Below, piece after piece: positions 41,144 through 41,350 of a DNA stretch of 64,000 nt. Within the stretch, counting starts at the first letter, position 1. Each line of letters opens with the position of its first letter. The position numbers were made by a program, and so were the translations under genes. The DNA is taken from the NCBI RefSeq assembly GCF_050920415.1, contig NZ_CP169309.1; one strand, given 5' to 3'. The notes beneath the pieces are model-generated. The model worked only from the letters and a program-made list of their open reading frames with translations, was not told where the DNA came from and ran no database searches. The stretch comes from Escherichia coli (lineage in GTDB: Bacteria; Pseudomonadota; Gammaproteobacteria; Enterobacterales; Enterobacteriaceae).

Positions 41144-41235
41144 TATCAATAAAATTACTCTCGTTAACGTGGCGAGAGTAATCCCCCCAGACCTTATAAG
41201 CTAAGTTTTTTCGTGAAGGTTATTGCCAGATCCAA

Positions 41236-41263
41236 AAGCAAAAACCCGCCTTGTGGGCGGGTT
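41236..41263 (-). terminator. Rho-independent terminator downstream of pheV
   Basis: On the minus strand: AACCCGCC-CACA-AGGCGGGTT followed by TTTTGCTTTTGG. Confidence 0.6.
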
Positions 41264-41274
41264 CTTAAGAATAG

Positions 41275-41350
41275 TGGTGCCCGGACTCGGAATCGAACCA
41301 AGGACACGGGGATTTTCAATCCCCTGCTCTACCGACTGAGCTATCCGGGC
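41275..41350 (-). tRNA. pheV: tRNA-Phe (anticodon GAA)
   Basis: The minus strand reads GCCCGGATAGCTCAGTCGGTAGAGCAGGGGATTGAAAATCCCCGTGTCCTTGGTTCGATTCCGAGTCCGGGCACCA: 76 nt, anticodon loop ATTGAAAAT, encoded CCA end. Confidence 0.95.

Follow-up and report, generated by a model that had tools for sequence, protein, structure and literature searches.

The DNA analysed here is a 64-kb stretch of an Escherichia coli chromosome, referred to below as the window. It is colinear with positions 769961-833960 of the chromosome of E. coli MFDS1022581 (NZ_CP169399.1), from which it differs by five mismatches (99.99% identity), and the RefSeq annotation used for the window is that of this genome. From left to right, the annotated genes are pitB, yghT and yghS, a lipid/LPS-type cluster (3394-13227), yghO and glcCDEFGBA, followed by sslE (24683-29242), pppA, gspS-beta, gspC to gspL and gspM/yghD on the plus strand, and then by tRNA-Phe and yqgA on the minus strand, speC, nupG and on to metK. 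The features of the interval between gspM and yqgA are as follows.

40592-41143, plus strand: gspM (yghD), final gene of the T2SS-beta operon, present as an allele of 183 aa whose C-terminus is extended by 5 residues (open reading frame list and RefSeq)
41125-41227, no strand: left-hand portion of the spacer in its 'kps-less' form, replaced by the group 2/3 kps locus in capsule strains (match pattern and alignments)
41154-41182, no strand: hairpin A, ATTACTCTCG-N9-CGAGAGTAAT, with 10-nt perfect arms (sequence and folds)
41239-41267, minus strand: hairpin B, predicted rho-independent terminator of pheV (terminator scan and fold)
41275-41297, minus strand: attachment core, the last 23 nt of pheV, a segment that is duplicated in island-bearing genomes and single here (match breakpoints and alignments)
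41275-41350, minus strand: pheV, tRNA-Phe (anticodon GAA) with an encoded CCA end (ARAGORN, Rfam RF00005 and the tRNA sequence)
41456-42163, minus strand: yqgA (DUF554), the conserved flank 5' of pheV (RefSeq; synteny in outgroups)

ARAGORN, run over the whole window, found one tRNA gene in the 64 kb, a tRNA-Phe (GAA), and the same gene scored 68.3 bits against Rfam RF00005, for which the gathering score is 29, with a cloverleaf carrying the GAA anticodon. Five further matches in an Rfam scan of positions 40900-41500 at E <= 1 were rejected as chance, as they lay far under their gathering scores and the tRNA alone passed. RefSeq places yqgA, speC and nupG on the 5' side of the gene in the 99.99%-identical genome, and because of this yqgA-speC context the tRNA is pheV and not the sequence-identical pheU. 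The genes gspM and pheV are convergent, and the spacer from the gspM stop (41143) to the 3' end of pheV spans 131 nt (41144-41274), close to the roughly 130 bp estimated in an earlier reading of this DNA that was made without database searches (hereafter the sequence-only reading).

Relative to K-12, the window shows a 1-nt deletion that adds five residues to GspM and has one T fewer before the CCA end of pheV. The deletion lies at 41120-41143 of gspM/yghD, in a G-run before the K-12 stop (GGACGGGGGTAA -> GGACGGGGTAAAG), and the C-terminus of GspM here is ...EFGRGKVSGD (183 aa) as opposed to ...EFGRG (178 aa) in the K-12-like allele; strain R32_14_1F has the same 552-nt gspM. The missing T falls in the interval between the pheV terminator and the CCA end (41268-41274; CCA-CTATTC here, CCA-CTAATTC in K-12), which is the stretch in which RNase E has been reported to cut, 2-3 nt after the CCA of pheV, and in which mutation of these bases left function unaffected (PMC8860583).

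State of the pheV attachment site

The locus next to T2SS-beta at which pheV lies has been described as a hypervariable hotspot (PMC3707838), and many pheV islands have been listed (PMC7545054). Those with P4-like integrases, such as PAI-V/PAI I of ExPEC, OI-122 or LEE-type islands and CP4-like islands, share one target, the 3' 20-23 nt of pheV, here 41275-41297. Integration of an island by a P4-like tyrosine integrase regenerates a full tRNA beside the integrase and leaves a partial tRNA copy between the island and the spacer. Islands of this kind flanked by 22-bp repeats have been reported to excise via the P4-like integrase and to be both gained and lost (PMC10272209). They possess an integrase, a direct repeat and cargo, whereas the window has none of these.

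No integrase, transposase, phage gene or insertion sequence is annotated in the 64 kb, according to the RefSeq annotation of the 99.99%-identical genome. When the pheV-adjacent integrase of O157:H7 was compared with the window by tblastn, the best E value was 1.8, and neither an integrase near the tRNA nor any remnant of one was found. A second pheV 3' end was sought across the whole window with a 25-mer and an 18-mer at up to 3 mismatches, and the sole match was the tRNA itself. When 15- to 50-mers from the 3' end of pheV were scanned without gaps, the best off-target match was 15/20, inside gspL at 39956, which is chance level, and gapped blastn-short of the tRNA against the window gave chance matches of 9-13 nt, the best of them 13 nt from the middle of the tRNA. 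A far boundary, at which about 20-50 nt of the tRNA 3' end would recur as a direct repeat, was not found in the window, in searches that reached 41 kb to the left of pheV and in which a repeat eroded to below about 70% identity is indistinguishable from chance. The repeats found in a window-wide search were pseudopilin N-terminal motifs and REP-like elements, none of which bounds the gsp block. Between pheV and yghD there is no foreign DNA, as the 131-nt spacer alone lies there, colinear with that of empty-site genomes. In the near-identical genome, two places match the tRNA-containing query, pheV and presumably pheU; this is the minimum over 5425 genomes, the median being 3.

The pheV attachment site is very probably unoccupied at present in this chromosome, with the spacer representing the ancestral junction of strains that carry neither an island nor a capsule locus, and the window holds no evidence to the contrary. 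An unoccupied hotspot, the lack of an integrase and the lack of a duplicated tRNA 3' end had all been proposed in the sequence-only reading, and each was borne out: the 64 kb hold no integrase, insertion sequence, cargo or tRNA repeat, there is no copy of the last 15-20 nt of pheV in the window beyond the tRNA, and a partial pheV 3' duplicate along the gsp/ssl region was searched for and is absent. An empty pheV is an ordinary state and is already known E. coli biology. K-12 and W carry no mobile element at pheV (PMC3032704), and the yghD-pheV-yqgA locus of K-12 MG1655 and W shares with the window its gene order, the convergence of the genes, both hairpins and the single tRNA copy, with spacers that align end to end at about 95% identity. 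K-12 differs in its gspC'-gspL' deletion, whereas the window has a complete gspC-M operon.

The frequency of this arrangement was assessed with a 421-nt query (41000-41420), and a site was called empty at a coverage of at least 80%. Such coverage requires the junction to be contiguous, as the two halves on their own reach no more than 71% and 51%. Of 5426 complete E. coli genomes, 1530 (28%) have the contiguous yghD-spacer-pheV-yqgA arrangement; the collection is biased, and such counts are not population frequencies. A query ending at 41297 was covered to at least 80% in 2495 genomes, and the difference points to about 965 further genomes in which the spacer is kept and an insertion is present at the tRNA.

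In genomes that lack the contiguous arrangement, matches break exactly at 41275, the 3' end of the tRNA, and on the yghD side the same broken matches extend 23 nt into the tRNA, up to and including 41297. In occupied E. coli genomes, about 160-200 bp separate pheV from an integrase, and 20-23 nt of the tRNA 3' end recur where the island meets the gspM-side spacer. The distance from pheV to a tyrosine integrase is about 200 bp in O157:H7; 55989 is a strain with a CP4-like island whose 23-nt end repeat, TGGTG-CCGGACTCGGAATCGAA, adjoins an identical spacer; and GPEC1210 carries an SPI-7-type integrative element with a 50-nt tRNA repeat. Since the tRNA repeat lies between island and spacer in every occupied genome examined, gspM and T2SS-beta fall outside the island. 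The view that the T2SS-beta/sslE block is chromosomal flank and not pheV-island cargo holds, and its strongest support is the position of the repeat in these occupied genomes. The sequence-only reading had likewise kept the T2SS apart from any pheV island. The occupied comparators agree with this conclusion: their repeat is on the pheV side of the spacer, and 55989, GPEC1210 and R32_14_1F all keep gspM outside the repeat. Conservation of T2SS synteny beyond the capsule locus has also been reported (PMC10272209).

Strain R32_14_1F (NZ_CP074749.1) is the closest complete-genome relative besides the near-identical strain, with 99.9% identity in the mltC-trmB segment, and it carries a pheV island of about 21.5 kb (approximately 857.9-879.5 kb) with an integrase at a distance of 164 bp from pheV. 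Its gspM is the same 183-aa allele and its spacer is near-identical; the spacer is followed by the repeat TGGTG-CCGGACTCGGAATC and then by the island. This island encodes an AbiEii-like toxin and its DUF6088 partner, a TerB-N protein accompanied by an ATPase and a DEAD/DEAH helicase, and an ATP-dependent nuclease, along with two hypothetical proteins of very large size, and by this gene content it looks like an anti-phage defence-type island.

The presence of an island beside a near-identical spacer in so close a relative raises the question of whether the window's own lineage once carried one. It is possible, if tentatively so, that a recent ancestor had an island which was lost by precise integrase-mediated excision between the two repeats, restoring a scar-free junction; at least 14 independent pheV-island excisions have been inferred in lineage CC95 (PMC10272209). 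However, an independent gain in R32_14_1F fits the data equally well, and there is no positive trace of excision, which leaves none when it is precise, so that a site never occupied and a site occupied and then excised look alike at the junction. Excision is compatible with the main finding, as the present state is unoccupied either way. The two strains, one with an empty site and one with a 21.5 kb defence-type island, form a natural example of hotspot turnover in a rare lineage, and the present strain could act as a clean recipient (naive attB) for studies of pheV-island integration.

Capsule insertion point and spacer hairpins

The same yghD-pheV interval is also where the group 2/3 kps locus is found, with its ends at about 41125 and about 41228. 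Many genomes match only two segments: the end of yghD (41000-41124) and, at a separate genomic position, the pheV terminator together with the repeat (41228-41297). In ST131 and in the B-derived C43(DE3), kpsM/kpsT-type capsule export genes directly follow yghD, and in U15A the terminator-plus-repeat segment adjoins kpsF. The kps locus therefore replaces 41125-41227, including the palindrome, in many strains, and the allele in the window is the capsule-less one. A kps locus, with kpsM/T by yghD and kpsF by the pheV terminator, is absent from the window; where kps-bearing strains have capsule genes, it has a short spacer with hairpin A. The sequence-only reading was silent on the use of this spacer as the kps site in many strains, and that site, too, is empty here.

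Hairpin B is the sole consensus intrinsic terminator called in the spacer. It begins 8 nt past the CCA end of pheV and consists of 12 pairs, 6 of them G-C, followed by the tail TTTTTGCTTTTGG; the terminator scan recorded both a G+C-rich stem and a U-tract, and the folding energy is -17.4 kcal/mol. A K-12 pheV clone with 61 nt downstream of the CCA has been described as carrying "its own terminator" (PMC8860583), and hairpin B falls inside the 61 nt that correspond to this clone. Hairpin B probably ends pheV transcription, which is consistent with the K-12 cloning data.

Hairpin A is a second structure in the same spacer. The palindrome that the sequence-only reading described (TTACTCTCG...CGAGAGTAA) is real, with its arms at 41155-41163 and 41173-41181, although the span of 41156-41182 assigned to it there was off by 1 nt. 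As plus-strand RNA, the stem contains 13 bp including G-U pairs and begins 11 nt past the gspM stop codon, and it forms a stable stem-loop (-14.5 kcal/mol on the plus strand and -11.1 on the minus strand). When the spacer was shuffled 5000 times, a perfect inverted repeat of 10 bp or more appeared once; the spacer itself folds significantly better than its shuffles on both strands (z = -3.2 and -3.8), and hairpin A is identical in all five of the E. coli yghD-side loci examined.

That the palindrome is probably the gspM terminator, as the sequence-only reading had it, is a claim that finds no support in the anatomy of the hairpin. The short distance from the gspM stop, the stability of the plus-strand stem, the identity of hairpin A in all capsule-less E. 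coli loci examined and the very low likelihood of such a repeat by chance would suit an intrinsic terminator of the gsp operon. However, the plus-strand stem is followed by six C residues, CCCCCC (CCCCCCAG; CCCCCCAGACC; CCCCCCAGACCT), and not by a U-tract, whereas the U-rich tail, UUUAUU (UUUAUUGA), is on the opposite, minus strand, and the consensus terminator scan of the spacer did not call hairpin A. Furthermore, capsule-bearing strains with an intact gsp operon are without the hairpin A segment, and hairpin A is therefore dispensable for the operon. A role for hairpin A as the gsp terminator is thus unlikely.

Termination of gsp transcripts at hairpin B read in reverse, or by Rho, is more likely than termination at hairpin A. 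Bidirectional intrinsic terminators are common between convergent genes of E. coli, and these resemble hairpin B in having a G+C-rich stem between the convergent units, with A-tract and T-tract sides. Hairpin B may be bidirectional, acting also on the convergent gsp operon, and it would be the most plausible stop for the gsp transcripts. However, the plus-strand tail after its stem (TTCTTAAGAATAG) is a weak U-tract, so that bidirectional action is no more than putative. If hairpin A terminates anything, it more likely acts on residual leftward read-through from pheV; conserved as it is in capsule-less strains, it is oriented as a possible second, weaker terminator for such transcripts.

Origin of the T2SS-beta block and lineage of the strain

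The surroundings of pheV differ in their conservation on its two sides. The yqgA-speC-nupG side is syntenic in Salmonella, Citrobacter, Atlantibacter and other Escherichia, whereas the other side is without gsp, sslE and glc within 10 kb in those outgroups, and pheV thus marks a deep synteny breakpoint. The far side instead holds T6SS genes in two Escherichia species, flagellar genes in C. sedlakii and integrases in several others. The T2SS-beta block is also heterogeneous in composition, with a G+C content of 56.1% in gspD-gspM (31656-41143) and 45.7% in gspS2/gspS-beta (30247-30657), compared with 51.9% for the window. Both observations would fit a reading in which the T2SS-beta/sslE block is a very old pheV-associated acquisition that lost its integrase and repeat and was then fixed. 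However, the deviation in G+C is modest, the window has neither a repeat nor an integrase remnant, and all island-bearing E. coli examined have the repeat between island and spacer, with gsp outside. The outgroup survey covered one genome per species with a YqgA relative and 10-kb flanks, which are too short to decide the origin of the block; these flanks are filled by other insertions, and gsp could sit further out. An ancient acquisition of this kind is quite improbable. Very unlikely is a broader proposal, in which the T2SS-beta/sslE block would be an ancient pheV-linked acquisition with eroded scars and the two spacer hairpins would form a dedicated double terminator, hairpin A shielding the gsp 3' end from antisense read-through of the very strongly transcribed pheV.

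The significance of the locus is mainly one of correct annotation: the hotspot carries neither a pheV island nor a group 2/3 capsule locus, and the complete T2SS-beta/SslE system is chromosomal backbone in this strain. T2SS-beta has been lost independently beside pheV in several ways. In strain LA3 (NZ_CP141840.1), an IS1 lies at the junction of pppA with the pheV terminator region; the gspC'-gspL' fusion deletion is found in K-12-like genomes; and in two GTDB representative genomes an island or integrase fragment runs directly into glcA or glcB.

The strain itself is a member of a rare lineage. The gspM-pheV-yqgA locus (40592-42200) is about 5% diverged from nearly all complete genomes, and only 2 genomes reach at least 99% identity; in the core segment mltC-trmB (46200-49500), identity to nearly all of the 5425 complete E. 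coli genomes is about 98%, with just 3 of them at 99% or more.

Several further features of the window lie away from the hotspot. The cluster between yghS and yghO (3394-13227) encodes a serine palmitoyltransferase, an acyl carrier protein, a fatty acyl-AMP ligase and an epimerase, together with LptF/LptG paralogues, a YtfJ-family protein and an LPS-biosynthesis (flippase-like) protein, and these products suggest a sphingolipid-like or unusual lipid pathway. Of the five differences from NZ_CP169399.1, one falls here, a G to A change at 5992 (open reading frame 5547-6371) that converts TGG to TAG and so truncates, at residue 148 of 274, a hypothetical protein of this lipid/LPS cluster. The remaining four are at 28560 (sslE), 30874 (gspC), 52113 and 59724; the first two introduce no stop codon in the translated genes, and the last two are outside the translated set. 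REP-type palindromes (GCCGGATAAGGCG...GCATCCGGCA) are found at 29247-29283, just past sslE, and at 49981-50017, 53173-53209 and 63499-63540, all of them intergenic.
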